The position numbers and the translations under genes were made by a program. DNA of 64,000 nucleotides from NCBI GenBank assembly GCA_963730615.1, contig CAVSSR010000010.1, positions 479-64,478 of the forward strand, given 5' to 3'. The notes under the pieces were generated by a model. It was not told the origin of the DNA. It did no database searches and saw only the letters and a program-made list of their open reading frames with translations. Numbering within the stretch: position 1 is the stretch's first letter; each line of letters starts with the position of its first letter. This document shows positions 5,865-41,404 of the stretch, in pieces. This stretch comes from an uncultured Bacteroidales bacterium (GTDB lineage: Bacteria; Bacteroidota; Bacteroidia; Bacteroidales; VadinHA17).

Positions 5865-5904
5865 AATTCTGCAGCCCAGGCTAAAATCAACTGAATACTA
5901 TTAA

Positions 5905-6114: not shown

Positions 6115-6163
6115 TTGATTCGTTTTTATGGTTTATTTTGTAAAATCACACCAAATTATTTGA

Positions 6164-7354: not shown

Positions 7355-7400
7355 GGCACCTGGATTGAAGTGTCACGGCTTCCGGATTTCAACTCTTTTC

Positions 7401-7772: not shown

Positions 7773-7779
7773 ACTGATT

Positions 7780-8133: not shown

Positions 8134-8170
8134 AATATCATTAGTGATGATCTTATCCCCCTGACGGTTA

Positions 8171-8449: not shown

Positions 8450-8470
8450 GATTTCTTTAATTTAATAAGC

Positions 8471-8560
8471 CCGCCCCGGATTATCCTGTTTTAAACCCCT
8501 TATATACTGATCAGTTTGTATTTCAGGTAGATGAAATGACACAGGAATTTTCCGGGGCGG
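8471..8560 (-). other. About 90-nt extended hairpin between the lmo0937-like gene and the YtxH gene
   Basis: A 10-bp GC stem (CCGCCCCGGA at 8471-8480 pairs with TCCGGGGCGG at 8551-8560) extends through CCTGT(8485-8489)/ACAGG(8541-8545). An inner TTTCA/TGAAA helix is also possible. Confidence 0.5.
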
Positions 8561-8589
8561 ACTTAATGATTACTAATAAAATGCTGGAT

Positions 8590-8745
8590 CTAGAGGATTC
8601 TTCTCCCCTGGATAACTCTCACTAAAACTGCAATGACTGCAATGACAAGCAGGATGTGTATCAGACCTCCGACATGGAACCCGATAAAGCCTACTGCCCA
8701 TGCAATGATCAGTATTACCGCAACTACATAAAGTAAATCTCTCAT
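8590..8745 (-). CDS. lmo0937-family small membrane protein (51 aa)
   Basis: Below the ORF-track size cut-off. Hand translation gives MRDLLYVVAVILIIAWAVGFIGFHVGGLIHILLVIAVIAVLVRVIQGRRIL, which matches the typical lmo0937/DUF5670 pattern. Confidence 0.8.
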   Translation of the reverse strand: MRDLLYVVAVILIIAWAVGFIGFHVGGLIHILLVIAVIAVLVRVIQGRRIL

Positions 8746-8763
8746 GATTTTGTTTTTTAATTT

Positions 8764-9093
8764 TTACAACAGAACGATTAACAGAATAAGAATAATAAGC
8801 AGTACGGCTGCTGAAATGTAAATGCCGCCACTTACTGCCTTAAGTTCACTGCTTATTGAACGAACTTCTTTTCGCAGCTCTTTCTTTTCTGACGCGGTCA
8901 GATCAGACTTGTCCGACGTCTTAATTTCGTTCAGCCTGAGCAGTAATTCGTTAGCTTTAGCAGCATCTGCAGGGCTTACGGGATTGGTGTTAGCCAATGA
9001 GGAAGGCTCGGTTTTGGGTGCAGCGCTTAATGAAAGTGGGATAAATGTCAATGACAACAATGTCGCCATTAAACAAAGAGCAAACTTTTTCAT
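8764..9093 (-). CDS. Hypothetical secreted, C-terminally anchored protein
   Basis: Signal peptide ending SLSAAP, a charged helical middle region and a C-terminal TM helix (IYISAAVLLIILILLIVLL). It is the first gene after module P5. Confidence 0.6.
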   Translation of the reverse strand: MKKFALCLMATLLSLTFIPLSLSAAPKTEPSSLANTNPVSPADAAKANELLLRLNEIKTSDKSDLTASEKKELRKEVRSISSELKAVSGGIYISAAVLLIILILLIVLL

Positions 9094-9173
9094 GATACCT
9101 GATTTTTTTTAGTATGACTTAATAGTTATTAATAATATCAATCTTGCTTTTAGTAATTAAAAGATTACAATGG

Positions 9174-9243
9174 TAAAATTACACCACCTGGTCTGGAAAA
9201 TCGTTACATGATTTTGGGATATTAATTACATAATTCACACATT
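9174..9243 (-). promoter_or_regulatory. Composite promoter module P5 (drives 8764..9093, the lmo0937-like gene and probably YtxH through the AI-2E gene)
   Basis: GAATGTGTGAATTATGTAAT-N16-TGTAAC-N21-TAATTTTA. The box lies 81 nt before the ATG at 9093. Confidence 0.6.
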
Positions 9244-9290
9244 CCATGAAATGTCAGCTACGGAATGCATGAGACAATGAATAAGTGGTT

Positions 9291-11045
9291 TTATTGATCT
9301 CCAGCTCCTGAAGACCGGGCTTCAGCCAGTACGCTGATATCTGTCACAGCATCAAAGTAAGAAAGTCTCTTATTACAGATCAGCTTACTGCATCCTGTCA
9401 TATCCTCAAAGTAAAAAAGTGTTGGTTTTGTTGTCACCTCTATTCTTACTGAGACATTCTCTTCCTTGCAATAAAATTCGACAGGCATGCTGAAGCCCTC
9501 AGGAACGTTCAGCCATTTTGCCGCGATAACCGGTACGACCTTCCTGTCAGCCGTTGGGTTACCTTCATCTATACCGGCAGGGTCAAAATACCAGTAGAGA
9601 ACCGGAACCTCACGGCGATAAAGGTATGCTTCAAAGAATTTATCCCAGTCCTTACCTGTCTTCCGCTCAACAACCTCTATGAAATCGGCAGTTGTAACGT
9701 GCGATGATGCTGCATGCTCACGGTAGAAAGTCTGTAGAATATCAAAGAAAAGAGTGCTGTCATTCAGAACGTTACGTATTGTATGCAGCACCATGGCTCC
9801 TTTATTGTAAACATCATTGTCCCTGTTATTCCAGTAGCTGACATTCGCCGGACCTACAACCGGAAATTTATTCTTTATCGATCCGGCAATGAAGTACCTT
9901 GCATACAACAGTGAGTTGTCATATCCCATTTTATGTTCTGCAAAGAGCATTTCGGAATATGTGGCGAACCCCTCCTGCAGCCAGATATCGCCAAAATCGC
10001 TGACTGATACGGCATTACCCCACCATTCATGGGCGGCTTCATGGATGATTATATAGTCGCCTCCCAGCCAGGCCCTGTTTGAATAACCGCTTCCATAGGC
10101 TATGGCTGTCTGATGTTCCATTCCTTCAAACGGTGCCTCAACAAGCCGGAATCCCTCTTTAATCCATGGGTAGGGTCCGAAAGACCTGGCATAGAGGTTA
10201 ATTATATCCTTTACCTGAATAAATTGCTTTTTTGCTTTTTCAAGGTTTTGCGGCAGAACATAATAATCAAGGTTCAGGATGCCTTGCGGAGTGAGCATTG
10301 TGTCACTGAAATGTTCAAATTTCCCTGCATAGAAGGTAATATTGTAGATATTGACAGGGTAACTGGTGCTCCACGTAAATGTTTCACTCCCTGCATTTGA
10401 CGTATGGCTCTGCATCTTACCGTTTGAAACAACCTGCAATCCTGCCGGAACTGTCATGCGTAGCCTGACACTGTCGGGCTCATCGGAAAGATGGTCCTTG
10501 CACGGGAACCAGATGCTGCCTCCTTCAGTTTCGCATGTCACACCGATCCATGGGTTGTCATTCTCGTCTTTTTCCCACACCACACCGCCGCTCCATGGCG
10601 GATTTTTTGCCATTGTGGGTTTACCATAGTATTCGACGGTAATAATATAGTCCCGGCCAATAACCAATGGATCAGGAAGAGATGCAATCACTGCTCTGTC
10701 ATTTCGTGAAAAGGGGATCTCCTGTCCCGACATCTTCAGGCTGCTGATGTCAAGGTTTTCATAAAGGTCAATGCGGATTTTGCTAAGTTCTGCCTGTGCT
10801 TTGAAATGGATATTTACCACACCCCCAAGCTTTTTATTATCCGGATCAAGGTTAAGGTCGAGATCATAAAAAGTTACATCATAGCCGGCGCGATCTTCAT
10901 CAAGCTTCCCGATCAGGTAATCCTTTTCCGTAAACTTCGGGTAGCTGCCGGGGTTTTTGGGGACCTTGCCAAATTCCGGGAACCGGATAATAGCGCAACT
11001 GTTGAGTAAGAGGAACGCAAGGAGAATGAACAAAAGTCTTTTCAT
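9291..11045 (-). CDS. M1-family metallopeptidase (aminopeptidase N-like)
   Basis: Zinc motif HEAAHEWWGN followed by WLQEGFATY, plus a signal peptide with a Cys. Confidence 0.85.
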   Translation of the reverse strand: MKRLLFILLAFLLLNSCAIIRFPEFGKVPKNPGSYPKFTEKDYLIGKLDEDRAGYDVTFYDLDLNLDPDNKKLGGVVNIHFKAQAELSKIRIDLYENLDISSLKMSGQEIPFSRNDRAVIASLPDPLVIGRDYIITVEYYGKPTMAKNPPWSGGVVWEKDENDNPWIGVTCETEGGSIWFPCKDHLSDEPDSVRLRMTVPAGLQVVSNGKMQSHTSNAGSETFTWSTSYPVNIYNITFYAGKFEHFSDTMLTPQGILNLDYYVLPQNLEKAKKQFIQVKDIINLYARSFGPYPWIKEGFRLVEAPFEGMEHQTAIAYGSGYSNRAWLGGDYIIIHEAAHEWWGNAVSVSDFGDIWLQEGFATYSEMLFAEHKMGYDNSLLYARYFIAGSIKNKFPVVGPANVSYWNNRDNDVYNKGAMVLHTIRNVLNDSTLFFDILQTFYREHAASSHVTTADFIEVVERKTGKDWDKFFEAYLYRREVPVLYWYFDPAGIDEGNPTADRKVVPVIAAKWLNVPEGFSMPVEFYCKEENVSVRIEVTTKPTLFYFEDMTGCSKLICNKRLSYFDAVTDISVLAEARSSGAGDQ

Positions 11046-11051
11046 TGTAAT

Positions 11052-11765
11052 TCAAGCGGTTGCCTTCTTTTGCTTTAGTTTTTGTTTTAATGCAGTTTCG
11101 ACCAGCTTATGTTTGGCGATTTCATTCACCAGTTTTTTATTGGTTTTCTTTAATTTATTTATTTCTACTTCAAGATCAATCTTTTTATCAATAAGTTGCA
11201 TGCGCAAACGCTGTATTACATCTAATTTCTTTTCCAATAAGAGGGATAATTCAAGAAGCTTTTTTTCTTCCTTCTTCATTTCTGATATGTCAGTTGCTAC
11301 AAGTATGCAATAATCACCTTGCAGATAAGCAGGTAAAAGCTGAATGGATAGTTTCAGATATAATGAGTTGATCAGGGATACTATCAGAACATTATTTTTA
11401 TTATCAGTCTGTTGAGCAAGCAATTTATCAAATTTTGATTTATCATTCGGAACGATGAAACGCTTAAAGTATGAACCAATCACACGCTCAATTGGTTCGT
11501 GCACAAGTTCAGCAAATCTCTGATTACAATAGATAATTATACCTTCTCTGGAAAGAGTAACTGCTCCTTCGTTCATTTCTTCTATGAAAGTACGATATGG
11601 TGTTTCAGCAGAACTGATTGAATAGACTTGTTCTCCTTTCGTACCAGAAACCACAATCGCATCCACTTCACCGCTTCGAATTGCTGAAAGCGTTTCTTCA
11701 GTTTCAGCCAGGCGGGAATGTAATTCTTCATTCTCAATAATGAGTTGTTCTTTTGTTTTGGTCAT
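11052..11765 (-). CDS. PAS-domain protein flanked by coiled coils, with no recognisable output domain
   Basis: N-terminal coiled coil, a PAS-like core (EGAVTLSREGIIIYCNQRFAELV...) and a long Lys/Leu-rich C-terminal coiled coil. It is the last gene of the kai cluster. Confidence 0.7.
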   Translation of the reverse strand: MTKTKEQLIIENEELHSRLAETEETLSAIRSGEVDAIVVSGTKGEQVYSISSAETPYRTFIEEMNEGAVTLSREGIIIYCNQRFAELVHEPIERVIGSYFKRFIVPNDKSKFDKLLAQQTDNKNNVLIVSLINSLYLKLSIQLLPAYLQGDYCILVATDISEMKKEEKKLLELSLLLEKKLDVIQRLRMQLIDKKIDLEVEINKLKKTNKKLVNEIAKHKLVETALKQKLKQKKATA

Positions 11766-11810
11766 TGACGTTATTATAATAAATCAAATGTGCTAAAATT
11801 CCTGAAAATC

Positions 11811-12164
11811 TTACAGGTCTTTTACCTTTTTCAGGTCTAATCCCATAAGTACTTTTTCTTTGTTTGACATATCGCCAATAATACGACGGAATGGAAGCGG
11901 CAGTTTTTTAATCAATGTCGGGGCTGCAATTATCTGTTCATCTTTTGCCAAACTTGGCATTTGATACAGGTCAATCACTTCCAGTTCGTATCGCCCTTCA
12001 AGATATTCTTCGCAAATCTTTTTCAGGTTCGTAATGGCTAAGACCGATCGACTCGTTGTACCGGTTATGTATAAACGCAAAATATATTTGTCCTTGCCCG
12101 ATTCAGACATTGTCAGATCAAACTCTTTTGTTGATCCTTTTACTTTTGTTTTTTTCTCTTTCAT
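11811..12164 (-). CDS. kaiB: KaiB-family protein with Lys-rich N-terminal extension
   Basis: [74 protein letters not shown] is a clear KaiB pattern. Confidence 0.9.
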
Positions 12165-12195
12165 AATTATGACTGATAAATATTGTATTTATAAA

Positions 12196-12462
12196 TCAGC
12201 TGACAGGCAATAAATCCAATCCGACAAGAACACGTTCTGTATCTGAGAGATCACCTATTATCTTACGAACAGGTACCGGCAATTTTCTTACTAATGTTGG
12301 TAAGGCAAGAATCTGGTCCTCGTTACCCAACTGTGGATTTATCAAAAGGTCAATTACTTCAATGGAGTATTTCCCTTCTAATTGTTCTTCACATATTTTT
12401 TTCAGATTTGCAAATGCAGTAAGGGCTTTTGGAGATTGTCCTGCAACATATAAACGAAGCAC
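12196..12462 (-). CDS. kaiB: KaiB-family protein (GTG start as given; true start possibly the ATG at 12538, reached through a frame error)
   Basis: [72 protein letters not shown]. Confidence 0.9.
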
Positions 12463-12585
12463 CCACTTATCATTTGCCGTTATTAACCGGTTTTTCTTTT
12501 TTAATTTTTTTATCTGAATTTTCTTTCTTTGGTTTCATCGGATACTCGTTTTAATTATTTTTTCAATTTGCTGGTTGTACTATTT

Positions 12586-14290
12586 TTAATGATCAGCTTT
12601 TCTGCTTACTGCCATTTCTATTTTATCCTGTTCCAGTCGTTTAATCATGTCTTGTTCTGTTTCTATCATTTTAACAGCTTCGGATTCTTCCGACTCAAAA
12701 TCGGCATGCAATGAAGCAATCTGAGCTTCTAATGCCTTGCGTTTTCGTTCTAGTTCACGTTTTTTTCGTTCAATATCCTGCTTACGCGTCAACACTTCGG
12801 CATTTTCAAGAGCTTCCTGTGCAATACGGGCTGAGCCGGTTAAAACTCCACTGGCACCAATATAAACCTCACGTAATTCTACACCGTGGTCAGTTAAAAT
12901 GAATTCGCGAATCTGGTTAGAGTTAGCCATTCCGCGCGATTTAAGAACATACATTCCCCTGTTTCGTTCACCGTTTAATTCTATATCACGAAGTAATAAC
13001 CAGGTATCTATCAGTGATGATATTCCGACATCAGAACTCTCCAATGCGCTTTCGGTTGAAGTCAGGCTGGTAAACAATGCTGTTATTTGATTCGACTTAA
13101 GAAAATCGACAATACGCATTAACATCGTTTTTACTTCGATCTCTTTATCACCAATGACGAAAGTATTTATTGGATCCAGAATAACAATATCAGGTTTGAA
13201 AGCATTTACAGCTTTGTGAGTTACAGCCAGATGCATTTCCAGACCATAAAATGTTGGCCGGGTTGCCTGGAATTGTAAAAGTCCTTTCTGCACCCAGGGC
13301 TCTAATTTTATACCGATGGAAAGCATATTACGCATTAAGCTGGTTTGGAGATTCTTCGAAACAGAAATAAAGAACACGTTCACCTCTTTTACATGCTGCT
13401 TCTGCAAAGTGAGCTGCAACACTTGTTTTTCCTACTCCGGCAGTACCGGAAACAAGTACAGTGCTGCCGCGGTAATAACCTTTTCCTTCAAGCATTTTAT
13501 CAAGTGCAGTTATACCACTTGAGATTCTTTTGTTTGATACAATATGTTCTAATCCTAAGGAAGTTACAGGTAATACTGAAAAACCATTTTCATCAATCAG
13601 AAACGGATACTCATTGGTACCGTGCATTGAACCACGGTACTTTACAACCCGTAAACGACGTGTGGAAGTCTGTTCGGTTACACGATGGTCGAGCATAATA
13701 ACACAATCTGAAACATATTCTTCCAAACCCTGCCTGGTAAGAGTTTCTTCTCCACGCTCACCTGTTATGATTGCAGTAACACCTTTTTCTTTTAACCAGC
13801 GAAATAACCGCCGCAGTTCAGCGCGTAGGATCAGTTGGTTTGGCAATCCGGCAAACAGTGATTCAATAGTGTCCAAAACAACACGCTTTGCTCCAATAGA
13901 ATCAATTGCATAATCAAGGCGTATGAATAAACCTTCCAGATCGTATTCACCGGTTTCTTCTATTTCACTGCGCTCAATATGAACATGGTCAAGTGCAATT
14001 TTTTTATTTTTAATAAGGTCTTCCAGATCAAAACCCAGTGAAGCAACATTTTTGATTAATTCTTCATTGGTTTCTTCGAATGACATAAATACACCCGGTT
14101 CGTTAAACTGAGTTGCACCACGTACAAGAAACTCCATTCCAAAAAGTGTCTTTCCGCATCCTGCACCACCACATACGAGGGTTGGTCTGCCTGCTGGTAA
14201 TCCACCGCCTGTTATTTCATCAAATCCCTGAATTCCGGTGGGAGACTTGAGAAGATTTTTATTTACTGGTTTACGGTCTGCTTTTTTCAT
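12586..14290 (-). CDS. kaiC: KaiC-family double-domain ATPase with C-terminal coiled-coil tail; frame broken once near 13335
   Basis: ORFs 13328..14290 and 12586..13422 join as ...FEESPNQL|MRNMLSIGIKLEP... Walker A motifs: GGAGCGKT in the CI half and GTAGVGKT in the CII half. The span of 1705 nt is 3n+1; removing one t of the tt at 13335-13336 restores the frame. Confidence 0.9.
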
Positions 14291-14465
14291 TGATTATCAA
14301 TTAAATAAAGTCATATCAGATTATAGGCGATATGTTGCTAAACAACAAGTACTTAATTCCGGCCTTTTCTGGTCAGTATGATCCTCCAACCCTGGTCAAA
14401 GTCAATTATAATTCTGATCAGTCTTGTATTGTTAAAAAGCCAGACTACCCAGGTTAAACCTGACA

Positions 14466-14609
14466 CTAGGCTAATTTATAAATCAAATAAATAATAGAAC
14501 CCAATACTAAACATACGCACATTGAAAGGCTGTAGGCCATCAAAATGGCATATTTTAGCTTTGATCTGGCTTTCAAGTCCTCAGTAAATAAATCATCCCT
14601 TGTTTTCAT
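14466..14609 (-). CDS. Small membrane protein (47 aa), first cistron downstream of module P6
   Basis: Below the ORF-track cut-off. Base-by-base hand translation gives MKTRDDLFTEDLKARSKLKYAILMAYSLSMCVCLVLGSIIYLIYKLA with a TAG stop at 14466-14468. The ATG lies 44 nt after the -7 box, in the same range as the other modules. Confidence 0.5.
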   Translation of the reverse strand: MKTRDDLFTEDLKARSKLKYAILMAYSLSMCVCLVLGSIIYLIYKLA

Positions 14610-14652
14610 GATGATGGACAAAAACGGTTTAAAGTGATTCCAAATTACAATA

Positions 14653-14721
14653 CAAAGTTGAAATCCTTTACTCTGAGAAACTTTACAAAATTTCAGGAAA
14701 AAGTTACATCATTCACACATC
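14653..14721 (-). promoter_or_regulatory. Composite promoter module P6 (drives the small ORF and probably kaiC-kaiB-kaiB-PAS-M1 peptidase)
   Basis: AGATGTGTGAATGATGTAAC-N15-TGTAAA-N21-CAACTTTG. The distal end overlaps the stop codon (14713-14715) of the AraC-family gene. Confidence 0.6.
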
Positions 14722-15273
14722 TTCCAGAGCCCGGGGTTTTTTGTTCTTCAGTTTTTTAAACTGGGACGGAGTAAGCCCTGTCATTTTCCTGAACTGGTTT
14801 GAAAGGTGGGCTACACTGCTGTAGTGCAGTTTCCAGGCTATTTCGGTGAGATTAAGTTCATCATATATTAGCAGTTCCTTTACCTTTTCGATTTTGTGCG
14901 CCAGGTAAAACTTCTCAATGGTAACCCCCTTTACTTCTGAAAAAAGATTTCCCAGATAGGTGTAATTGTGATTGAGTTTTTGGCTCAGGTGGTCGGAAAG
15001 GTTTATTTTGATCTGCTCATCGGTATTATGCACCAGGTCAATGATGACTGCTTTTATTCTTTCAACCAGGATGTTCTTTTTGTCCTGCATCAGTTCAAGC
15101 CCGGTCTTTTTAAGTGCAATTGCGAGGTTTTCGCGCTGCTCCGGTGAAATATCCTCCGTTATTTCAGCTTCGCACAATTCAACTGATCCATAATGCAAAC
15201 CCGCCTTTTCCAGCTCCGATTTTACCAGCATTATGCAACGGAGGCTGACCATATTTTTGATGTAGAGTTTCAA
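14713..15273 (-). CDS. AraC-family transcriptional regulator
   Basis: C-terminal HTH region LTEIAWKLHYSSVAHLSNQFRKMTGLTPSQFKK, with a small N-terminal alpha/beta domain. Confidence 0.85.
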   Translation of the reverse strand: MKLYIKNMVSLRCIMLVKSELEKAGLHYGSVELCEAEITEDISPEQRENLAIALKKTGLELMQDKKNILVERIKAVIIDLVHNTDEQIKINLSDHLSQKLNHNYTYLGNLFSEVKGVTIEKFYLAHKIEKVKELLIYDELNLTEIAWKLHYSSVAHLSNQFRKMTGLTPSQFKKLKNKKPRALEDV

Positions 15274-15304
15274 TATGCCGGGTATACAGGGATAGTTACT
15301 TCTT

Positions 15305-15334
15305 CAAATTTAAGATTTTTTCTGAAAGACCAAA
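15305..15334 (-). promoter_or_regulatory. Canonical Bacteroidota sigma-A-type promoter of the AraC-family gene
   Basis: On the minus strand, TAAATTTG (plus-strand CAAATTTA at 15305-15312) lies 31 nt before the ATG. A TTTG (plus-strand CAAA at 15331-15334) lies 18 nt upstream. There is no TGTGAAT/TGTAAC module here. Confidence 0.4.
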
Positions 15335-15695
15335 GGCCGCTTGCCAGCCCCTGATCCAAAAATCCAGGATAGAAGCTTCCATGCACACCAGAATTATAAC
15401 ACCTATGTTCCCGCTATGTTTCTGACTTTAATAAAAATCGTATCCGATAACTCGATGATTGAGCCATACAGCCGCGCACTTCCCATGAGGTCCTGAGCCG
15501 CAAACAGAAATGTCCGGCGTAAGGATTTAAAAGCTGTAAAAATTCCTCCAAAAGAGAGAGTTATAACTTCTGTCTTCAGGAGGAACTACAAAGTCGATCT
15601 GTCATATGGTGTTGATATACCACCCGGGGAAAAAGATATCCTCGTTCTGGCAGGAAAGTTTAATGATATAAAAAATTCAGCGAAAGCTAGGGCTT

Positions 15696-16271
15696 TCAGA
15701 GTACTACCCTTGTATTATGGCCAAAAAGGTAAAACAGGCCAAACTGAATTCCCCTGTTGGTTGATTTTACTTCACTGCTTTTATTTATATCGTTTAATCC
15801 GTGATTATATCTCAGATCAAGACCAAACCCCGTTGAAGGAACCACATAGCTGACACCAACACTTAATGCAAAGTCAATGGGGTTATAATCATTCTCATTG
15901 TCTGAACTGACCAGGAAACCTACCTGTGGTCCGGCCTGTATTCTGAATCCGTTGTCAAACATATATTGAATCAGGACAGGTATATTAATATAACCCAGAT
16001 TATAATTTTTTGCACCCTGGGCGGAATATACAAGTTCAGGCTGAATTGCCCACTGACTGTTGCGGTGGATATGGCCAAGCAAACCAAAATTATAACCTGT
16101 TCTCTGGTCATAACTGGTATTGTTGTCATTGTGAATGTTATAAAAATTCAGCCCGCCCTTAATTCCAAGGGTTACGTGTCCTGCAGGTGCATTGCCGTGC
16201 TGTGCACTGACAACACCCGTTATCATAATTGCTGTAATTAATCCGATCAGAAATTTCATAGCTTTTTTCAT
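15696..16271 (-). CDS. Porin-family outer-membrane beta-barrel protein
   Basis: Signal peptide MKKAMKFLIGLITAIMITGVVSAQ, beta-strand-rich sequence and a C-terminal ...FGLFYLF-type motif. The ORF-track start at 16325 lies too close to the -7 box of P7, so I use the ATG at 16271. Confidence 0.75.
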   Translation of the reverse strand: MKKAMKFLIGLITAIMITGVVSAQHGNAPAGHVTLGIKGGLNFYNIHNDNNTSYDQRTGYNFGLLGHIHRNSQWAIQPELVYSAQGAKNYNLGYINIPVLIQYMFDNGFRIQAGPQVGFLVSSDNENDYNPIDFALSVGVSYVVPSTGFGLDLRYNHGLNDINKSSEVKSTNRGIQFGLFYLFGHNTRVVL

Positions 16272-16328
16272 TTGTTTATTATTAGTTTTCGATATCACCT
16301 TTTTCATTAAGGAGCTTATAATCAACTG

Positions 16329-16397
16329 TAAAGGTGCGGGTTATTTATTGACGGAATGTTACATAATTGTATATACTTATTACATAATTCACGGATC
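16329..16397 (-). promoter_or_regulatory. Composite promoter module P7 (drives porin-family gene 15696..16271)
   Basis: GATCCGTGAATTATGTAAT-N15-TGTAAC-N21-CACCTTTA. It is back-to-back with P8. Confidence 0.6.
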
Positions 16398-16417
16398 AGA
16401 ATGGGATTGAAGAAAGT

Positions 16418-16484
16418 CCTGTGAATTATGTAATTATGTTGATGAAAAGTGTAACGGTTCCGCTGGCTTAGCTGCCTACCTTTG
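16418..16484 (+). promoter_or_regulatory. Composite promoter module P8 (drives small membrane protein 16550..16774)
   Basis: CCTGTGAATTATGTAAT-N15-TGTAAC-N21-TACCTTTG. The box ends 65 nt before the ATG at 16550. Confidence 0.6.
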
Positions 16485-16549
16485 CTTTGTTGAAGGGCAC
16501 CTCCCGCAATAACAATTAATGCAAAAAATAAACTTATAAGGAGAAAATC

Positions 16550-16774
16550 ATGAGCACAAGAAGAGACAGAAGAATAATCTACTATTTAATTGCAGCTGCA
16601 GTTATTATTATTGCCTTCCTGTTTGTTAGGCGGTGCATCCTGGATGAAAGGGATGGGACATGGCAACGGTTCAATGGGTACGGTCAGTTTACACTGGGGA
16701 CAGATTCTGATCAGCCTGGGTCTGGGGTTTCTGCTCGGGTGGATAGTCTCCAAAAGGAAATGGTGATTGTCTGA
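16550..16774 (+). CDS. Small single-TM membrane protein (74 aa), hypothetical
   Basis: MSTRRDRRIIYYLIAAAVIIIAFLFVRR..., with its own module P8. Confidence 0.55.
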   Translation: MSTRRDRRIIYYLIAAAVIIIAFLFVRRCILDERDGTWQRFNGYGQFTLGTDSDQPGSGVSARVDSLQKEMVIV

Positions 16775-16787
16775 TTACCTTCAGACT

Positions 16788-18413
16788 TCAAATGGGCAGG
16801 TCTTTAAAAATTACTTCAGACCTGCCAATCGAGTCTTCCATTTTCTTATTGCCGTCAGCCAGGGTTGAAGTAATTCCTGAAAGAATAGATCTGAAGCAGT
16901 AATGCAAAACAGATCTTTCAGGGTCTCTTATATAATCTATTGTACCCTCTCTGACGTCTCCCCCCTGTACAGGGTTTGAATCTGGTATTCTTCTGTTAGC
17001 TATATAAGAGACAAATCTTTCTCTGAATGCTGTTGTATCATCAGTCTGTTTGTTCTTAACAGCGATGTCCAGTCCATGATAAAGCATGATCATTTTGCCT
17101 GTTGCCTTGTCATTATTTGCAATGAAGCTGAAACTCAATGCATCGATTTTGCCGGAAGTGGCATAAATAAAGGCATTTTTCTCAAGGATTGGATTTAACT
17201 CAGTAACGTTCAGGCCTGATAGAGTTCCTTCAAGTGAAAATATATTATTACTGTCAAATATTCTCTCTTTTAAATGAACGGCCATCTTTCCTTTGCCCAT
17301 TAACAGGGCATCAGCCTTGATTTCTAAAAAACCTTTTTCTGTTTTGTAGCTGGTGTCATTTGTTAATTTGTAAAGGCTGGCATTGATTTCATTAAATCTT
17401 ACAATTCCTGGCTCGTTTGCCTCTTCAGCATGTACTGTAAAAGTTACATTCCCTTTCATAAGAATTATTGAATCAATCAGGAAGTTGTGGGGAAAGTCGT
17501 AAAGGATATCCTGAAAGGCGGGTTTATTCAAATGCCGGAACTCTTCTCTCTTATCACGAAAAACTTTCATGTCCATTTGCCCGATCTCTATATACGGACT
17601 TCTGAGGCTCATTGATCTGAGATAAGCTTCGGAATCGAAATCGTAAACATAAATGTCGGTTAAGGCAACTTCGATACGGTTCGTTTGGAATGCATGTCTC
17701 GATGTGAAATCATAGTTTGTGTAATTCGGGCGAACAAAAAGGCTGTCTATGAACAAAGTGTTCACATTGGCAGGATAGCTGACCCCCTTTACCACATAAG
17801 AATACATTTTGTCAGACGAAACCAGCATGAGTTCCCGGGCTTTGAAATCAAACAGCTTAATGGTACCGGGGAGTAAAGTATCCATCTTCCCGACCTGCAA
17901 ATCGTATACTTTCAGCATCCCATCCTTTACTGAATAAGTCTGCCCCGTTGAATCGTCTTCCAATTCCAGGTTCAGTTTATCAAACAGGATTCTGCCTATG
18001 CCAAGACTTATGGGTGAAACTACCGGTTGTGTTGCTCTGCCCGAAAATGGAAATTTACCGTTAATAATGCTATTGGAAAAGTTTACTTTATTAATATAAA
18101 TATCATGTTTAAATATTGCTCTGGGGAGGTTGATGCCTGTCAACTTTACAGACGCTATCTCACCGATTAAATCGCGGTCTACTCCATTCTCCGGATTTGA
18201 AAATATTGTCATTCCTGTCAGTTTTATCCCTGACTTGATAATCAAAATATTAACCTTATCTATTTCAACGATGTAATTTCTTGCTTCTTTATTCAATTCT
18301 GACCGTATTTTTCCCCCGATCCAGGGCTCAATAAAAATTCTGGTTATAATTTCTACCAGCAACAAAAGAGTACACGCTGCAACAAATATTTTTAAAATTA
18401 TTTTCTTCCGCAT
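16788..18413 (-). CDS. Large membrane-anchored hypothetical protein (possibly AsmA/DUF748-like)
   Basis: 541 aa with an N-terminal TM anchor followed by a beta-rich region. The family assignment is only an impression from the N-terminal region. Confidence 0.5.
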   Translation of the reverse strand: MRKKIILKIFVAACTLLLLVEIITRIFIEPWIGGKIRSELNKEARNYIVEIDKVNILIIKSGIKLTGMTIFSNPENGVDRDLIGEIASVKLTGINLPRAIFKHDIYINKVNFSNSIINGKFPFSGRATQPVVSPISLGIGRILFDKLNLELEDDSTGQTYSVKDGMLKVYDLQVGKMDTLLPGTIKLFDFKARELMLVSSDKMYSYVVKGVSYPANVNTLFIDSLFVRPNYTNYDFTSRHAFQTNRIEVALTDIYVYDFDSEAYLRSMSLRSPYIEIGQMDMKVFRDKREEFRHLNKPAFQDILYDFPHNFLIDSIILMKGNVTFTVHAEEANEPGIVRFNEINASLYKLTNDTSYKTEKGFLEIKADALLMGKGKMAVHLKERIFDSNNIFSLEGTLSGLNVTELNPILEKNAFIYATSGKIDALSFSFIANNDKATGKMIMLYHGLDIAVKNKQTDDTTAFRERFVSYIANRRIPDSNPVQGGDVREGTIDYIRDPERSVLHYCFRSILSGITSTLADGNKKMEDSIGRSEVIFKDLPI

Positions 18414-18436
18414 GATATGGCATTATAGTCAGAGGT

Positions 18437-33192: not shown

Positions 33193-36100
33193 CTATTCAA
33201 GGTTGATGCTCAGGCCCAGGCCCCTCAGCTCGTGCAGAAGCACGTTAAGAGATTCTGGTATGCCCGGAAGTGGCATCGGTTCACCCTTGACGATAGCCTC
33301 GTAAGCTTTTGCCCTTCCTATCACATCGTCAGACTTGATAGTAAGTATCTCCTGGAGTATATGTGCAGCGCCAAATGCTTCAAGCGCCCAAACCTCCATC
33401 TCACCAAACCTCTGGCCGCCAAACTGTGCCTTGCCTCCGAGAGGCTGCTGGGTGATGAGCGAATACGGCCCTATTGAACGGGCGTGCATCTTGTCATCAA
33501 CCATGTGGCCGAGTTTGAGCATGTAGATCATTCCCACGGTGGCTGGCTGGTCGAACCTGTCACCCGTGCCTCCGTCATAGAGGTAGGTGGTACCGTTGCG
33601 CGGTATGCCGGCTTTTTCGGTCAGGTCATGAATCTCTTCCTGGTTCGCTCCGTCGAATATCGGGGTTGAGAACTGCATTCCAAGCTCCTTGCCTGCCCAT
33701 CCCAGGACTGTCTCATAGATCTGTCCGAGGTTCATCCTCGAAGGCACACCCAGCGGGTTAAGAACGATGTCCACCGGTGTTCCGTCAGCAAGGAACGGCA
33801 TGTCCTCGGCACGTACAATCTTGGCAACAATACCCTTGTTACCGTGACGTCCGGCCATCTTGTCTCCGACCCTCACCTTGCGCTTCTTGGCAATATATAC
33901 CTTGGCAAGCCTTACTATGCCTGCAGGCAGCTCATCACCGATGGTGATGTTGTACCTCTTCCTCTTGTATACACCGTCTATCTCCTTGTGCTTGATAATA
34001 TAGTTATGGAGAAGCTGTTTGATGCTGTCATTCTTTTTCTTGTCTGTCGTCCACTTGTTGGGGTTGACATTCAGATAATCAATCTCCTGCAGCTGCTTAA
34101 GCGTGAATTTGGCTCCCTTGGGGATAACATCCACGTTCAGATAATCCTTCACTCCCTGTGAGGTCTTACCGTTCACAAGTATAAAGAGCTTGTCAACCAG
34201 GCGTGCTTTCAGATCATCCGCCGTTCTGTTGAAGTCAGCATCGATCTTGTCAAGCAGGGGCTTCTCGGCTGTCTTGGCCTTGCGGTCCTTTATAGCCCTG
34301 GTGAAGAGCTTCTTGTCTATGACCACACCTTCAAGAGACGGTCCGGCCTTGAGTGAGGCATCCTTGACATCACCGGCCTTGTCTCCGAAGATGGCTCTGA
34401 GGAGCTTTTCCTCAGGTGAAGGATCAGATTCGCCTTTTGGCGTGATCTTTCCGATAAGAATGTCACCGGGTCTGATCTGTGCGCCTATTCTTATGAGGCC
34501 GTTCTCATCAAGGTTCTTCGTTGCCTCTTCACTTACGTTCGGGATATCGGAGGTCAAGCTCTTCCATACCGCGTTTGGTGTCGCGAACTTCAAGAAGGTA
34601 CTCATCTATATGCACTGAAGTGAAGATGTCTTCCTGCACTACCTTTTCACTCAGCACGATGGCATCCTCAAAGTTGTATCCCTTCCATGGCATGAAAGCC
34701 ACCTTAAGGTTACGGCCAAGTGCCAGCTCACCGTTCTTGGTGCCATACCCTTCGGTAAGCACCTGTCCTTTTACAACCTTCTCCCCTTTCTTAACGATCG
34801 GAACGAGGTTGATTGTCGTATTCTGGTTTGTCTTGTGGTACTTGGGCAGATTGTAACGCCTGACGTCATCATCAAAGCTGACGAATTTTTCCTCATCAGT
34901 CCTGCGAGTATCTTACGACTATCTCGTTTGAATCAACGTATTCGATCACGCCGTCGCCTTCAGAGACTATCAGTATCCTTGAGTCTTTTATGACCTGTGC
35001 TTCCAGACCGGTGCCGACAATAGGTGCTTCAGGCCTTACCAGCGGCACTGCCTGTCTCATCATGTTTGATCCCATGAGTGCACGGTTGGCATCATCATGC
35101 TCGAGGAAAGGTATCAGTGATGCAGCTATTGATGCAATCTGGTTTGGAGCCACATCCATCATCTGCACCTTGGCAACCTCCTCGTAGGGATAGTCTGCCC
35201 CGAGCCTTGACTTGGCCCTGGGGTTCGTGAAGGTACCGTCTGCATTCAGCGGGGCATTGGCCTGCGCCACAGTCAGGTACTCTTCGTCTTCAGCGGTAAG
35301 CCACTTTACGGCATCGTTCTTGAGATCAACCTTCCCGTTGACAACATCACGGTAGGGTGTCTCGATGAAGCCGAGGTTATTGATCTTGGCATATACGCAA
35401 AGCGAAGATATAAGACCGATATTCGGTCCTTCAGGTGTCTCGATGGGACAGAGACGGCCATAATGGGTGTAATGTACGTCACGAACCTCAAATCCTGCGC
35501 GTTCACGCGAAAGACCGCCGGGACCGAGGGCTGAGAGACGACGCTTGTGGGTCATCTCTGCCAGCGGGTTGGTCTGATCCATGAACTGTGACAGCTGGTT
35601 GGTGCCGAAGAATGAGTTTATGACTGACGACAGGGTCTTTGAATTGATGAGGTCAACAGGTGTGAAGACCTCATTATCCCTGACGTTCATGCGCTCACGT
35701 ATCGTACGTGCCATACGGGCAAGACCTACACTGAACTGTGCTGACAGCTGTTCACCGACGGTACGTACCCTCCTGTTGCTCAGGTGGTCAATATCATCAA
35801 CATCAGTCTTTGAGTTGATGAGCTCAATCAGGTACCGTATGATGGCAATAATATCCTCCCTTGTCAGGATCTTGGTGTTCATGTCGATGTTAAGCTTCAG
35901 CTTGCGGTTTATCCGGAAGCGTCCCACCTCGCCAAGATCATAACGTTTATCCGAGAAGAAGAGCTTGTCAATGACATCACGTGCCGTAGCCTCATCCGGC
36001 GGCTCTGCATTGCGCAGCTGACGGTAGATGTATATCACAGCCTCTTTCTCTGAGTTGCAGGGGTCTTTCTGCAAAGTATTGTATATGATAGCAAAGTCAG

Positions 36101-37004
36101 ACAGGCTCACATCCTCGCGGTGAAGCAGGATCGATTTTGCCCCTGAGTCAACTATCAGGTCAATATGTTCATTTTCAATGACTGTCTCCCTGTCGAGCAC
36201 TACCTCGTTACGTTCGATGGAGACAACCTCACCCGTATCCTCGTCGACGAAATCCTCGACCCATGTACGGAGAACCCTCGCGGCGAGCTTGCGGCCGACG
36301 AGTTTCTTGATGTTCACCTTTGAGACCTTATGCTCTTCGGCAAGGTTGAAGATCTCAAGGATATCCTTATCGCCCTCGAAGCCGATAGCCCTCAGAAGGG
36401 TTGTGACAGGCAGTTTCTTCTTCCTGTCAATATAGGCGTACATCACATTGTTGATGTCAGTGGCAAACTCTATCCATGATCCCTTGAACGGGATGATGCG
36501 TGCTGAATAAAGCTTGGTGCCGTTGGCGTGGATGCTCTGTCCGAAGAACACGCCGGGTGACCTGTGGAGCTGTGAGACGACAACCCTCTCAGCGCCGTTG
36601 ATGACGAATGTACCGCGCTCGGTCATGTAAGGAATGACGCCCAGGTATACATCCTGGATCACAGTGTCAAAATCCTCATGCTCGGGATCGGTGCAGTAAA
36701 GTTTTAGTTTGGCTTTCAGCGGAACGCTGAAGGTCAGGCCTCTCTCAATACACTCATCGATTGTATATCTCGGAGGGTCAATTGAATAATCCAGAAACTC
36801 CAGCACAAAATTGTTCCTGGTGTCGGTGATGGGGAAGTTCTCCATGAAAACCTGGTAAAGGTTTTCTTTCCTCCTGTTCTCAGGTGTGGTGCCAAGCTGG
36901 AAAAACTCGGCAAAAGATTTTAATTGAATCTCAAGAAAATCAGGATATTCGAGCTGATCTTTCTTGGATGCGAAACTTACGCGTTCGTTATTTTTCGAGG
37001 ACAT
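33193..37004 (-). CDS. rpoB: DNA-directed RNA polymerase subunit beta; reading frame broken twice (near 34899-34912 and near 34555)
   Basis: Three collinear pieces: 34896..37004, a middle piece ...[24 protein letters not shown]...RGMEEL, and 33193..34605 from ...[13 protein letters not shown]. The span of 3812 nt is 3n+2, i.e. two extra bases. Removing the base at about 34555 restores ...[12 protein letters not shown]... Confidence 0.95.
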
Positions 37005-40215: not shown

Positions 40216-41404
40216 TTAGACAAGTATATCAATAACCTGACCTGCTCCCACTGTACGTCCGCCTTCGCGGATAGCAAAACGGAGGTTCTTGTTGATAGCC
40301 ACAGGATAGATAAGGTCGACGGTGATGGTTACGTTATCACCTGGCATTACCATTTCTGTTCCTTCAGGGAGAGTGATCTCACCGGTTATGTCGAGAGTTC
40401 TCAGATAGAACTGGGGACGATAATGGTTGTGGAACGGAGTGTGACGGCCACCTTCTTCTTTCTTGAGCACATACACCTCAGCCTTGAATTTGGTGTGGGG
40501 TGTGATTGAACCCGGTTTGGCAAGCACATGACCTCTCTTGATCTCTTTCTTGTCAACACCGCGCAGCAGCAGACCTACGTTGTCACCTGCTTCACCCTGA
40601 TCAAGGATCTTGCGGAACATCTCAACACCGGTACATATTGACTTGCGTTTTTCTGCACCAAGACCTACGATCTCGAGCTCATCACCTGTATGAACAACAC
40701 CTGTCTCAATACGGCCTGTGGCAACTGTACCACGTCCGGTGATTGAGAAAATGTCTTCTACCGGCATAAGGAACGGTTTCTCATTCTCACGCAAAGGTAT
40801 CGGAATGAATGAGTCAACTGCATCCATCAGTTCCATGACCTTTTCTTCCCATTTGGGTTCGTGGTTCATGGCACCGAGGGCTGAGCCGCGGATAACGGGA
40901 GCATCCGTCACCGTCATACTTATAGAAGTTCAGAAGGTCACGTATTTCCATCTCAACAAGGTCAATAAGCTCCTCATCATCGACAAGGTCAACTTTATTA
41001 AGGAAGACCACAATTTTCGGAACGTTTACCTGACGAGCGAGAAGGATATGCTCGCGTGTCTGAGGCATCGGGCCGTCAGTAGCAGCAACAACGATGATCG
41101 CACCGTCCATCTGGGCAGCACCTGTAACCATGTTCTTAACATAGTCAGCGTGTCCGGGACAGTCGACGTGAGCATAGTGACGGTTCGCCGTTGAATACTC
41201 AACGTGAGCTGTGTTGATCGTAATACCCCTTTCCTTTTCCTCGGGAGCATTGTCGATTGAATCAAAGTCCCTGATTTCCGAGAGACCTTTTTTAGCGAGA
41301 ACCATCGTAATAGCAGCTGTCAAAGTGGTCTTGCCGTGGTCGACGTGACCGATTGTACCGATATTAACGTGTGGCTTCGACCTGTCAAATTTTTCTTTTG
41401 CCAT
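40216..41404 (-). CDS. tuf: Elongation factor Tu; frame broken once at about 40905-40906
   Basis: ORFs 40814..41404 ([19 protein letters not shown]) and 40216..40917 (...[30 protein letters not shown]...). The span of 1189 nt is 3n+1. Deleting one c of the cc at 40905-40906 gives ...[16 protein letters not shown]... Confidence 0.95.

Follow-up and report, generated by a model that had tools for sequence, protein, structure and literature searches.

The region contains a kaiC gene, two kaiB genes, a gene for a PAS protein and a gene for an M1-family peptidase, all on the minus strand of the window (the whole stretch of 64,000 nt that was analysed). A promoter module and a gene for an AraC-type regulator lie upstream. 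The features, in the direction of transcription, are:

14713..15273, minus strand: AraC-type regulator, 186 aa, small N-terminal domain plus HTH_18 (Pfam HTH_18, 5e-17)
14678..14720, minus strand: promoter module ('P6'), GTGAATGATGTAAC-N-TTGTAAAG, with two TGTAA(C/A) half-sites ~21 nt apart (repeat search)
14653..14661, minus strand: candidate Bacteroidetes-type -7 box TCAACTTTG (near TAnnTTTG), ~30 nt 3' of the second half-site
14466..14609, minus strand: 47-aa hydrophobic peptide (MKTRDD...IYLIYKLA) between module and kaiC (ORF list)
12555..14290, minus strand: kaiC, KaiC2 / R. sphaeroides type (corrected; ending at 12555 with ...KLKK and a stop codon; ORFs, Pfam, HMMs, PDB alignment)
12196..12538, minus strand: kaiB1, canonical KaiB orthologue with a Lys-rich N-terminal extension (Pfam, NF006798, PDB), frameshifted
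11811..12164, minus strand: kaiB2, second ancient KaiB paralogue, 117 aa, intact, Lys-rich extension in frame (Pfam, clade across loci)
11052..11765, minus strand: PAS/coiled-coil protein, 237 aa (Pfam PAS; homology to the N-termini of Kai-associated kinases)
9291..11045, minus strand: M1-family metallopeptidase, 584 aa, signal-peptide-like N-terminus (Pfam Peptidase_M1 and M1_N)

Frameshifts in kaiC and kaiB1

In the window, kaiC is split between two open reading frames, 14290..13328 (320 aa) and 13422..12586 (278 aa), which lie in different frames. Three extra bases account for the interruptions in kaiC and kaiB1:

13336..13338 (~13337), minus strand: 1-nt insertion in kaiC, CAGC[T]TAATG, just past the catalytic EE of CII (DNA alignment)
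12591..12594 (~12593), minus strand: second 1-nt insertion, near the 3' end of kaiC, GCTG[A]TCATT (DNA alignment)
~12482-12484, minus strand: 1-nt extra base in kaiB1 (comparison with relatives)

Skipping one base at ~13337 restored ...FEESPNQL directly followed by MRNMLSIGI..., and NQLMRNM is uninterrupted in more than 100 intact KaiC homologues. The insertion at ~12593 replaces the last ~10-13 residues of KaiC by ADH and a stop codon. The longest kaiB1 reading frame in the window is 12462..12196 (88 aa, with a GTG start at 12462). The 12 relatives aligned at the DNA level lack both kaiC insertions, as does locus L081, which makes 13 relatives in all, and only the window carries the extra bases of kaiC and kaiB1. 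Insertions of this kind also split rpoB, tuf and a gene for an OmpA-like protein. As two of these genes, rpoB and tuf, are essential, we judge that the three frameshifts in the kai genes are most likely assembly errors and that the organism therefore probably has intact kaiC and kaiB1 genes. An earlier reading of the sequence had not recorded these frameshifts.

Assignment of KaiC

Pfam family PF06745 matched both halves of the protein, with 3.8e-87 in two stretches of one reading frame (ORF-a) and 4.5e-16 on the other (ORF-b). The repaired KaiC scored 749.8 bits with the KaiC equivalog model NF006799 (cut-off 408; residues 10-516 aligned) and stayed far under the cut-offs of the RadA, DnaB and RecA models in the same kind of HMM scoring. 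The HMMs thus group the protein with bona fide KaiC and apart from RadA and generic KaiC-like ATPases, grouping with which is the placement that the earlier note had named as the one that would speak against its reading. With the cyanobacterial KaiC model TIGR02655, the score was 356 bits, under the cut-off of 546.

The CI domain spans ~residues 17-241, CII begins at ~256 and a predicted coiled-coil tail at ~498. In the translation aligned to KaiC of R. sphaeroides (KaiC_RS), CI carries the Walker A motif GGAGCGKT and FMSFEE, and CII carries GTAGVGKT and FCFEES. The closest solved structure is R. sphaeroides KaiC 8DBA (696 bits, residues 14-550), compared with ~340 bits for cyanobacterial KaiC; the repaired KaiC and KaiC_RS are 58% identical over 533 aa. 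The segment GISSLIDTW aligns with GLSSLMDGW of 8DBA, so that a Ser-Ser pair corresponds to S413/S414, the positions at which the phosphomimetic structure 8FWI reads EE. This pair sits at the S431/T432-equivalent positions of KaiC, and a Ser-Ser pair is a criterion for the KaiC2/KaiC_RS type (PMC5520375, PMC10076222). Of the full-length double-domain KaiC proposed before, the two PF06745 halves, both Walker A motifs and the SS segment VGISSLIDTWLLL were recovered, but the full-length reading frame was not, being split in the window.

The charged tail of ~70 aa, longer than the ~50 aa that marks the KaiA-independent type, can be aligned with the tail of 8DBA as far as residue 550 (chain residue 541), and the coil-deleted construct 8DB3 stops at the equivalent of residue 498. 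This C-terminal extension is a predicted coiled coil with sequence homology to the KaiC_RS tail. The earlier suggestion that the tail resembles the C-terminal extension of hourglass KaiCs from Proteobacteria agrees with PMC10076222 (Pitsawong et al. 2023). By its sequence, the protein is a predicted two-domain ATPase/autokinase with a Ser-Ser pair and a coiled-coil C-terminal extension. The dN/dS of kaiC is 0.06-0.16; frameshifts aside, the coding sequence is under strong purifying selection.

Two KaiB paralogues

Both small genes adjoining kaiC encode KaiB domains (PF07689: 3.3e-26 for KaiB1 and 3.1e-25 for KaiB2). With NF006798 (cut-off 110), the repaired KaiB1 passed at 113.2 and KaiB2, at 100, was just under; both fell under the cut-off of the cyanobacterial model TIGR02654. 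For each of them, the top PDB match was KaiB_RS 8FWJ. The G and D of '(V/M)GLDL' are kept in KaiB1 and KaiB2, at positions that we take to be the fold-switch control residues of cyanobacterial KaiB. The two proteins form separate clades and their gene order is fixed, with kaiB2 second in 62 of 63 loci, which marks them, as judged from their sequences, as two ancient paralogues. The two KaiB genes suggested before are there, and the Lys-rich N-terminal extension proposed for both was borne out for KaiB2. In KaiB1, the window sequence puts the extension (from 12538) and the KaiB domain in different frames, whereas 19 relatives carry the extension in frame.

PAS/coiled-coil protein

The fourth gene encodes an N-terminal helix and a PAS module, followed by a helix of ~75 aa that runs to the end of the protein (the AlphaFold model is poor, pLDDT 53). 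With Pfam and NCBI HMMs, only PAS families were matched and no HisKA/HWE or HATPase_c domain was found in the 237 aa; among the Pfam matches was PF24820, a diguanylate-cyclase-like sensor domain. The protein lacks HisKA and HATPase and ends after the ~75-aa helix, and is therefore not a kinase. The PAS domain has helical flanks on both sides, in line with the architecture proposed by the earlier note, a PAS domain between coiled coils with no kinase or other output domain.

Homologous segments form the N-termini of kinases whose genes follow kaiB: identity was 41% over 87 aa with the HWE kinase of R. sphaeroides KD131 and 42% over 177 aa with the kinase of Pararhizobium. The unit of N-terminal helix, 'AIRxGEVDAxVV' and PAS is encoded directly after kaiB, and the same module heads kinases in distant loci, where the homologues of the PAS gene encode histidine kinases of 380-1077 aa. 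In the clade of 22 loci described below, the PAS proteins measure 232-250 aa wherever the gene is complete. On the basis of this distribution, the kinase-less form appears restricted to this Bacteroidales clade, with the kinase part lost there.

Conservation of the cassette and its neighbours

We fetched 80 loci, 22 of this Bacteroidales clade and 58 with long PAS kinases. The order kaiC-kaiB-kaiB-PAS was present in most of them and in many phyla, and KaiC identity across phyla was 62-93%. Judging from these loci, kaiC-kaiB1-kaiB2-PAS is a four-gene cassette conserved in many bacterial and some archaeal phyla.

The genes on either side have a narrower distribution. A membrane peptide ahead of the cluster and an M1 peptidase behind it had been pointed out before, and both are there: the hydrophobic reading frame runs from 14609 to 14466, and the M1 gene starts 6 nt past the PAS stop codon and is probably co-transcribed with the PAS gene. 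A homologue of the 47-aa peptide occurs only in locus L029 (65% identity, same position). Elsewhere among the relatives, 110-280 nt separate the module from kaiC, too little to accommodate the reading frame. The M1 gene follows the PAS gene only in L009, L016, L017 and L029. From their occurrence, peptide and peptidase are lineage-specific additions outside the conserved cassette.

We scanned 60 window ORFs with Pfam, nearly all non-overlapping ORFs of at least 110 aa, outside a run of six small ORFs at 37102-39211, adjacent to nusG and rpoB. These 60 ORFs gave no match to a KaiA, histidine-kinase or receiver domain, and SasA, CikA and RpaA-type proteins were not found among them, in line with the earlier statement that the window has no kaiA, sasA or cikA-like gene.

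Promoter module, AraC-type regulator and regulon

The sequence GTGAATNATGTAA occurs in nine exact copies in the window, where 0.34 are expected, and all of them lie within 3.4-18.5 kb. The copy that comes next after the one ahead of kaiC is at 9238, past the M1 gene. The Bacteroidetes -7 consensus is TAnnTTTG, and in an alignment of nine module copies, (T)A(C)CTTTG-like boxes appear at a fixed distance. The genes of the module regulon are of the YtxH, Gly-zipper/OmpA, Mla, OMP and AI-2E types. In the related Bacteroidales loci, the module is present 5' of kaiC in 19 of 21, regardless of the neighbouring genes. This conservation supports the claim that the kai cluster is a member of the promoter-module regulon.

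The stop codon of the AraC-type gene falls inside the module at 14678..14720, and wherever this gene occurs, its 3' end coincides with a copy of the module. It is confined to the clade with the module and stands outside the kai cassette proper. Module, AraC-type gene and kinase-less PAS protein co-occur in the 22-locus clade and in 0 of the 58 other loci; at the latter, with their long PAS kinases, neither an AraC-type gene nor the promoter module is nearby. Co-occurrence and geometry make the AraC-type regulator a candidate for binding the module. As a controller of the regulon, it is more obvious than the timer, which had been put forward as a possible controller.

The CsbD gene adjoins the cassette in L081.

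Discussion

Taken together, these results make it likely that the genes form an operon encoding a KaiBC phospho-timer that works without KaiA and belongs to the KaiC2 / Rhodobacter sphaeroides type. By analogy with the R. sphaeroides model system (PMC10076222), the KaiC tail would join two KaiC hexamers and keep the A-loop exposed, and because of this exposure KaiC would autophosphorylate without KaiA. KaiB1 would bind phosphorylated KaiC at its CI ring and promote dephosphorylation as ATP:ADP drops. The outcome would be an hourglass or energy-state switch and not a free-running clock. The PAS module would dock on KaiB or KaiC, as the PAS domains of KidA do on fold-switched KaiB (PMC9478674), and KaiB2 may serve as an adaptor for it. 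Since the kinase part appears to have been lost in the clade, we infer that output must run via contacts of the PAS/coiled-coil protein and not via a phosphorelay. Transcription of the operon would start from the clade-specific activator-site promoter that is common to YtxH, OmpA, Mla and OMP-type envelope/stress genes, and the neighbouring AraC-type regulator probably drives this promoter.

A more specific proposal, which we consider improbable, is that the phosphorelay output has been swapped for protein contacts in which KaiB2 brings the kinase-less PAS protein to the phosphorylated KaiC dodecamer, gating the AraC-type activator of the GTGAATnATGTAA module. If this were true, the KaiBC hourglass would be both a member of a general envelope-stress regulon and a timer of, or feedback on, it. 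KaiB2 would then be a dedicated adaptor, cassette-wide, and a free-standing counterpart of the KaiB-like domain of SasA.

The genes could also encode real KaiBC homologues that act as a stress-response switch and not as a timekeeper, with phosphorylation reporting only energy or redox stress. We regard this as a tentative but serious possibility. It would suit the position of the operon within a regulon of YtxH, Gly-zipper/OmpA, Mla, OMP and AI-2E-type genes, the CsbD neighbour in L081 and a host clade without known phototrophy, and it resembles reports on Legionella KaiBC and Pseudomonas KaiC-like proteins. Non-cyanobacterial KaiC2 homologues have been tied to stress resistance (PMC5520375; bioRxiv 10.1101/2022.01.26.477890). 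A stress switch is compatible with an hourglass mechanism, as ATP:ADP also drives the R. sphaeroides system. However, the 62-93% identity of KaiC across phyla and the conservation of both KaiBs argue for an enzymatic cycle and not for a loose stress ATPase. A daily-timing role in these presumably non-phototrophic sediment/soil Bacteroidales is doubtful.

It is unlikely that the locus is a decaying pseudo-operon, in which the three insertions are real and neither KaiC nor KaiB1 is functional. Three frameshifts within ~0.9 kb of the kai genes, versus about three in the other 62 kb, exceed a uniform error rate, and no kai insertion lies within a long homopolymer. However, the +1 insertions in rpoB and tuf demonstrate that the assembly is error-prone, and L017, a long-read-style MAG locus with similarly split kaiC and kaiB1, matches this pattern. 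The remaining coding sequence is under purifying selection, as noted, and kaiB2, the PAS gene and the M1 gene are intact.

A self-sustained circadian oscillator like cyanobacterial KaiABC would account for the presence of KaiC and KaiB and for the G and D kept in '(V/M)GLDL' of both KaiBs. It is very improbable in view of the absence of KaiA, SasA, CikA and RpaA-type proteins among the window ORFs scanned and of the low TIGR02655 score (356 against 546); moreover, the nearest characterised relative is an hourglass that depends on environmental cycling.

Programmed frameshifts that set the amounts of full-length KaiC and KaiB1 are suggested by the +1 shift required at every break and by the kaiC site CUU-A, which faintly recalls the +1 shift site of prfB, but recoding is effectively refuted by the non-conservation of the extra bases (missing from 13 same-clade relatives, all single-frame), and the sites lack a stop codon and any conserved stimulatory element and the lesions in rpoB and tuf are identical.

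Comparison with known systems

The KaiBC pair of Legionella pneumophila, a KaiC2/KaiB2-type pair of a non-phototroph linked to stress and not to rhythm, is a candidate parallel to the phospho-timer proposed here. Its KaiB (4KUN) matches KaiB1 and KaiB2 weakly (59-66 bits), a far lower similarity, and we know of no PAS partner or second KaiB in that system.

With Synechococcus elongatus KaiABC, the locus shares a two-domain KaiC, the Walker A motifs, the catalytic EE, a phosphosite pair at equivalent positions and the KaiB fold family. It differs in having SS and not ST phosphosites, in lacking KaiA, SasA and CikA among the window ORFs scanned and, by analogy, in a long C-terminal tail that would take the place of KaiA-dependent A-loop control. 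KidA of S. elongatus, which has a functional tie to KaiB, comprises four PAS domains, GGDEF and EAL and is encoded outside the kai operon; we liken it to the PAS protein of the window by function and not by homology.

Gene order and the KaiB1/KaiB2 pair are those of the kaiC-kaiB-'KaiB family'-sensor kinase cassettes of cultured Proteobacteria (e.g. Pararhizobium qamdonense plasmid p3) and of MAGs from many phyla. In these cassettes, the fourth gene encodes a histidine or hybrid kinase of 380-1077 aa, whereas here its product is kinase-less.

The closest system is the KaiBC hourglass of Rhodobacter (Cereibacter) sphaeroides KD131 (8DBA/8FWI/8FWJ; Pitsawong et al. 2023), with a KaiC that is 58% identical and has the same Ser-Ser sites, a homologous coiled-coil extension, kaiB directly 3' of kaiC, no kaiA among the window ORFs scanned and a next gene that likewise opens with the helix-plus-PAS module. 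In R. sphaeroides, a single kaiB is followed by a PAS gene for a 478-aa HWE histidine kinase, whereas here there are two KaiBs and a kinase-less PAS protein of 237 aa. The KaiBs of the window have Lys-rich extensions and GLD where KaiB_RS has NLK, and the promoter context is unlike that of R. sphaeroides. The Rhodobacter-type hourglass has been described already, and what the locus adds is a modest variant of it, with a PAS partner that carries no kinase.

Organization of the kai operon

The kai genes are preceded by an AraC-type regulator gene and a copy of a repeat module (P6 in the earlier note) and followed by an M1 peptidase gene, all on the minus strand. We refer to the first and second kaiB after kaiC as kaiB1 and kaiB2.

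15273..14713, minus strand: AraC-type regulator, 186 aa, HTH_18 (Pfam)
14720..14678, minus strand: repeat module (P6)
14609..14466, minus strand: ORF of a 47-aa hydrophobic peptide
14290..12586 as written, minus strand: kaiC, in two frames
12538/12462..12196, minus strand: kaiB1, frameshifted
12164..11811, minus strand: kaiB2, intact
11765..11052, minus strand: PAS protein, 237 aa, PAS (Pfam)
11045..9291, minus strand: M1 peptidase, Peptidase_M1 (Pfam), starting 6 nt past the PAS stop codon
9238: next module copy

Scanning of positions 9000-15400 revealed no terminator-like sites above chance that would break the operon. Sigma-70 promoter and terminator counts there did not exceed the shuffled expectation, the sigma-70 model being uninformative for Bacteroidetes promoters. 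Rfam and tRNA scans of the kai region gave no matches. Among the loci compared, the 47-aa peptide was found outside the window only in L029, and an M1 peptidase gene accompanied kai genes only in L009, L016, L017 and L029; the peptide and the peptidase are additions specific to their lineage.

Pfam family PF06745 (KaiC) matched both ORF pieces of kaiC (3.8e-87 and 4.5e-16), and PF07689 (KaiB) matched KaiB1 (3e-26) and KaiB2 (3e-25). All the KaiC features quoted in the earlier note appear in the translation: both Walker A motifs, the ...VGISSLIDTWLLL... segment and the charged tail. The double-domain KaiC of the note was recovered as both PF06745 halves, but these are split in two frames and do not form a single ORF. 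Likewise, the Lys-rich KaiB extension was in frame in KaiB2 but out of frame with the KaiB1 domain. The earlier note had listed no kaiA or kinase-type clock gene, and the Pfam scan agreed, yielding no KaiA, histidine kinase or receiver domains among the window ORFs that it covered.

KaiC is of the KaiC2 type

Repaired KaiC, translated with the inserted bases skipped, scored 749.8 bits against NF006799, the NCBI KaiC equivalog model (cut-off 408), and 356 against the cyanobacterial model TIGR02655, which is below the cut-off of 546. The best solved relative was the Rhodobacter sphaeroides protein KaiC_RS (PDB 8DBA; 696 bits), compared with ~340 bits for cyanobacterial KaiCs. The alignment with 8DBA spanned residues 14-550, coiled-coil tail included, and identity to KaiC_RS was 58% over 533 residues. 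GISSLIDTW of KaiC aligned with GLSSLMDGW, which holds the phosphosites S413/S414 and has EE at that place in the phosphomimetic structure 8FWI. On the HMM scores we rejected assignment to generic RadA/Sms or archaeal single-domain KaiC-like ATPases, an outcome that the earlier note had named as one refuting its reading.

The R. sphaeroides-type KaiC clade lies within the KaiC2 subgroup and has two serines; its C-terminal extension of ~50 aa forms a 12-helix bundle that links two KaiC hexamers (Pitsawong et al. 2023, PMC10076222). These proteins autophosphorylate independently of KaiA, KaiB speeds their ATPase and dephosphorylation, and the resulting KaiBC system is an hourglass driven by ATP:ADP (PMC10076222). 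The resemblance that the earlier note drew to the extended C-terminus of KaiA-independent proteobacterial KaiCs was correct and fits this clade. Bacteroidetes have only KaiB2/KaiC2-type proteins, as already published (PMC5520375). We conclude that the window encodes a KaiC2-type KaiBC system of known kind, probably an hourglass.

Origin of the frame interruptions

As written, kaiC consists of a 320-aa ORF (14290..13328) and a 278-aa ORF (13422..12586) in a different frame. With one base skipped at ~13337, kaiC reads ...FEESPNQL-MRNMLSIGIKLEPW...; more than 100 intact homologues of 577 aa, with 91-96% identity, have exactly this junction. A second extra base, at ~12593, changes the last ~13 kaiC residues to ADH and a stop, and a third, at ~12483, throws the Lys-rich N-terminal extension of kaiB1 out of the KaiB frame. 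In a DNA alignment with 12 relatives, both kaiC bases were unique to the window. The kaiB1 base was missing from 19 relatives, in which the extension is read in frame (for example, in L001), and all three bases were missing from L081, a locus with 86% nucleotide identity. Programmed frameshifting is ruled out by the lack of conservation of the extra bases, which are missing from all relatives.

True pseudogenisation of kaiC and kaiB1 would account for three breaks within 0.9 kb, which is more than a uniform error rate would give. However, single inserted bases also split three other genes of the window:

40216-41404: tuf, with the GTP domain at 41404..40814 and domains 2 and 3 at 40917..40216
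33193-37004: rpoB, in pieces 37004..34896 and 34605..33193
3627-4299: Gly-zipper/OmpA gene, split by one inserted base

Because rpoB and tuf are essential and yet split, the assembly is demonstrably indel-prone. All six frameshifts are +1 insertions at non-homopolymer sites, and the findings suggest an insufficiently polished long-read assembly. Moreover, the kaiC and kaiB1 matches in L017, another MAG locus, are split likewise, and the kai genes otherwise show strong purifying selection (kaiC dN/dS 0.06-0.16). Pseudogenisation is thus improbable, and the breaks in kaiC and kaiB1 are very probably assembly errors. Genes of this window should be called pseudogenes only with caution. The earlier note was right about the identity and context of the cluster but overlooked this problem of sequence quality.

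The related KaiC protein P0038 (L081, 10001-11704) has 567 aa and ends in SRKSDI-stop; an identical protein is also encoded by one ENA contig and one Logan contig. The frameshifted KaiC end in the window (SRKADH-stop, 12586-12600) has the same length by coincidence, resulting from an extra base as opposed to a nonsense substitution in L081, and a shared natural frameshift was rejected on the DNA. Since the L081 protein is shortened to 567 aa by a nonsense substitution, the last ~10 residues of KaiC (…VIKNSKTSKLKK) seem dispensable.

The promoter module upstream of kaiC

The window contains nine exact copies of GTGAATNATGTAA, compared with 0.34 expected at up to one mismatch. All lie within 3.4-18.5 kb, where the G+C content of the window is lower.

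Module copies: 3407-3449, 3509-3544, 5137-5172, 6189-6231, 9217-9243, 14678-14720, 16354-16396, 16420-16455, 18461-18503

The consensus reads GTGAATnATGTAAY, ~15 nt, TGTAAC, ~30 nt and a TAnnTTTG-like box. Every copy has a second TGTAA(C/A) ~21 nt downstream and a (T)A(C)CTTTG box ~30 nt further on; the copies at 3445/3510 and at 16392/16421 form divergent pairs. We take the box to resemble the Bacteroidetes -7 element, and half-sites ~21 nt apart would fit an AraC/XylS-type activator. This geometry suggests an activator site that lies ahead of a core promoter of the housekeeping type. Behind the copies are genes of the envelope or stress type, namely those for MlaEFD, Gly-zipper/OmpA, YtxH, DUF5670 and holin-X-like proteins, an AI-2E transporter, OMP beta-barrels and a 541-aa protein, as well as the AraC-type gene and the kai operon.

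In 19 of 21 related loci, kaiC was preceded at a distance of 65-440 nt by a strict or slightly degenerate module copy, with or without an adjacent AraC-type gene. In the window and in L001, L009, L010, L016, L017, L020 and L029, the stop codon of this gene always falls inside a module copy (...GATGTGTGAATGATGTAAC). Forty module copies and 10 AraC-type genes were found in the 22 loci with a short PAS gene (306 kb); the other 58 fetched loci (751 kb) had none of either. From this conservation, membership of the Kai timer in the module regulon, proposed in the earlier note from P6, is well supported at the sequence level, and we infer transcription from the module.

The AraC-type gene of the window itself follows another module copy and then an OMP gene (15696-16325), and so is probably autoregulated. 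The ~80-aa N-terminal domain of its product had no Pfam or PDB sequence match. A simpler candidate for controller of the regulon, the role the earlier note considered for the timer, is the AraC-type protein.

G+C content is 39-42% in positions 1-18500, which comprise the module 'island' and the kai operon, versus 45-51% in 18500-64000, the housekeeping part with tRNAs, tuf, nusG, rpoB, rpoC and others. Island genes (p541, p109, OMP, AraC, M1) recur in relatives in shuffled order. A tyrosine recombinase/integrase gene (42329-43210; Phage_integrase and SAM-like N-terminal domains) beside a tRNA-Thr/Gly/Tyr/Thr cluster upstream of tuf may be XerC/D-like and not of mobile-element type. A SiaC-family regulatory phosphoprotein gene of the partner-switch type (59576-59953), adjoining a MacB/FtsX-type permease gene, is apparently unrelated to kai. 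L081, which is without a strict promoter module, carries a CsbD-family general stress protein gene (8139-8324) ~1.7 kb upstream of its kai cassette, a further hint of a stress context.

A cassette with two KaiBs and a PAS protein

A scan of species-representative genomes gave 80 loci with KaiC identities of 62-93%, in Bacteroidota, several Pseudomonadota classes, Planctomycetota, Chloroflexota, Acidobacteriota, Verrucomicrobiota and Nitrospirota as well as the archaea Methanoperedens and Bathyarchaeota. Nearly all have the order kaiC, kaiB, second kaiB and a helix-plus-PAS gene. Where two kaiB genes were present, the first was KaiB1-like in 63 of 63 loci and the second KaiB2-like in 62 of 63. 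The best match of both window KaiBs was KaiB_RS of R. sphaeroides (8FWJ). In a midpoint-rooted NJ tree, KaiB_RS and the cyanobacterial KaiBs fell with the first-position clade, separate from the second-position clade. Judged by the fixed gene order and this separation, KaiB2 is an old, distinct paralogue. One planctomycetotal locus, L036, has four tandem kaiB genes.

A literature search, which was not exhaustive, gave no description of the second-position clade and, for tandem KaiB paralogues, only genomes, such as that of R. rubrum, in which two kaiBC clusters lie apart. That non-cyanobacterial kaiBC clusters are followed by kinase or PAS genes has already been published (PMC3164672, PMC9478674, PMC10931921).

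Sixteen records place KaiC2-type cassettes on plasmids, two of them conjugative; they include pRSKD131A of Cereibacter sphaeroides KD131 (L083), p3 of Pararhizobium (L084) and plasmids of Rhizobium, Sinorhizobium and others. Together with KaiC identities of 62-74% between Bacteroidota, Proteobacteria and archaea, these locations suggest that the cassette is often transferred horizontally.

The PAS gene is short in one clade, comprising the 22 loci (Bacteroidales-type MAGs) whose KaiC is at least 83% identical to that of the window. Its product there has only 232-250 aa and is built of an N-terminal helix, a PAS domain and a ~75-aa C-terminal helix. No HisKA or HATPase domains were found in these short proteins. 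In every more distant locus with a complete gene, the homologue is a kinase of 380-1077 aa; the proteins of two Bacteroidales loci lie in between, with 296 and 427 aa. As distant homologues are kinases, the window protein is best read as the sensor and docking module of a Kai-associated kinase, with the transmitter missing. Its AlphaFold2 model, built from a 30-sequence alignment at 80-89% identity, had a pLDDT of 53, a pTM of 0.36 and a PAS core below 50; only the terminal helices were used.

Proposed mechanism and comparison with known systems

KaiBC systems that lack KaiA are regarded as the original, hourglass version of the circadian clock, and to our knowledge the R. sphaeroides system is the only KaiA-less one dissected so far. 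Building on what is directly established here (family memberships, motifs, kinase loss, and conservation of cassette and promoter module), the R. sphaeroides system would predict that the KaiC tail forms a dodecamer, that KaiC autophosphorylates without KaiA, that KaiB1 binds the CI domain of KaiC and that ATP:ADP controls dephosphorylation. By comparison with KidA and from the logic of the cassette, the PAS module may dock on KaiB or KaiC, with KaiB2 as a possible adaptor. Because no kinase is present, output in the short-PAS clade would have to proceed by protein-protein interaction. In these bacteria the system may measure time of day or may simply signal energy or stress state.

The system as such is already known, with hundreds of near-identical copies in public databases and MAGs auto-annotated as KaiC and KaiB. 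Modestly new in this clade are the kinase-less PAS partner, the tandem KaiB pair and the stress-type promoter wiring. The PAS module emerges as the invariant partner in the cassette: an abundant environmental Bacteroidales clade has kept it, lost the kinase and placed the operon under a stress-type promoter. These findings open a route to understanding how Kai timers signal to the cell in non-phototrophs.

Pararhizobium carries kaiC, kaiB, a 'KaiB family' gene and a hybrid kinase. The R. sphaeroides plasmid pRSKD131A has a simpler form, with kaiC, a single kaiB and a 478-aa HWE histidine kinase whose N-terminus shares 41% identity with the PAS protein of the window. Taken together, the comparison presents the R. 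sphaeroides system as one simplified member of a very widely transferred four-gene cassette that combines KaiC and a PAS sensor with two different KaiBs.
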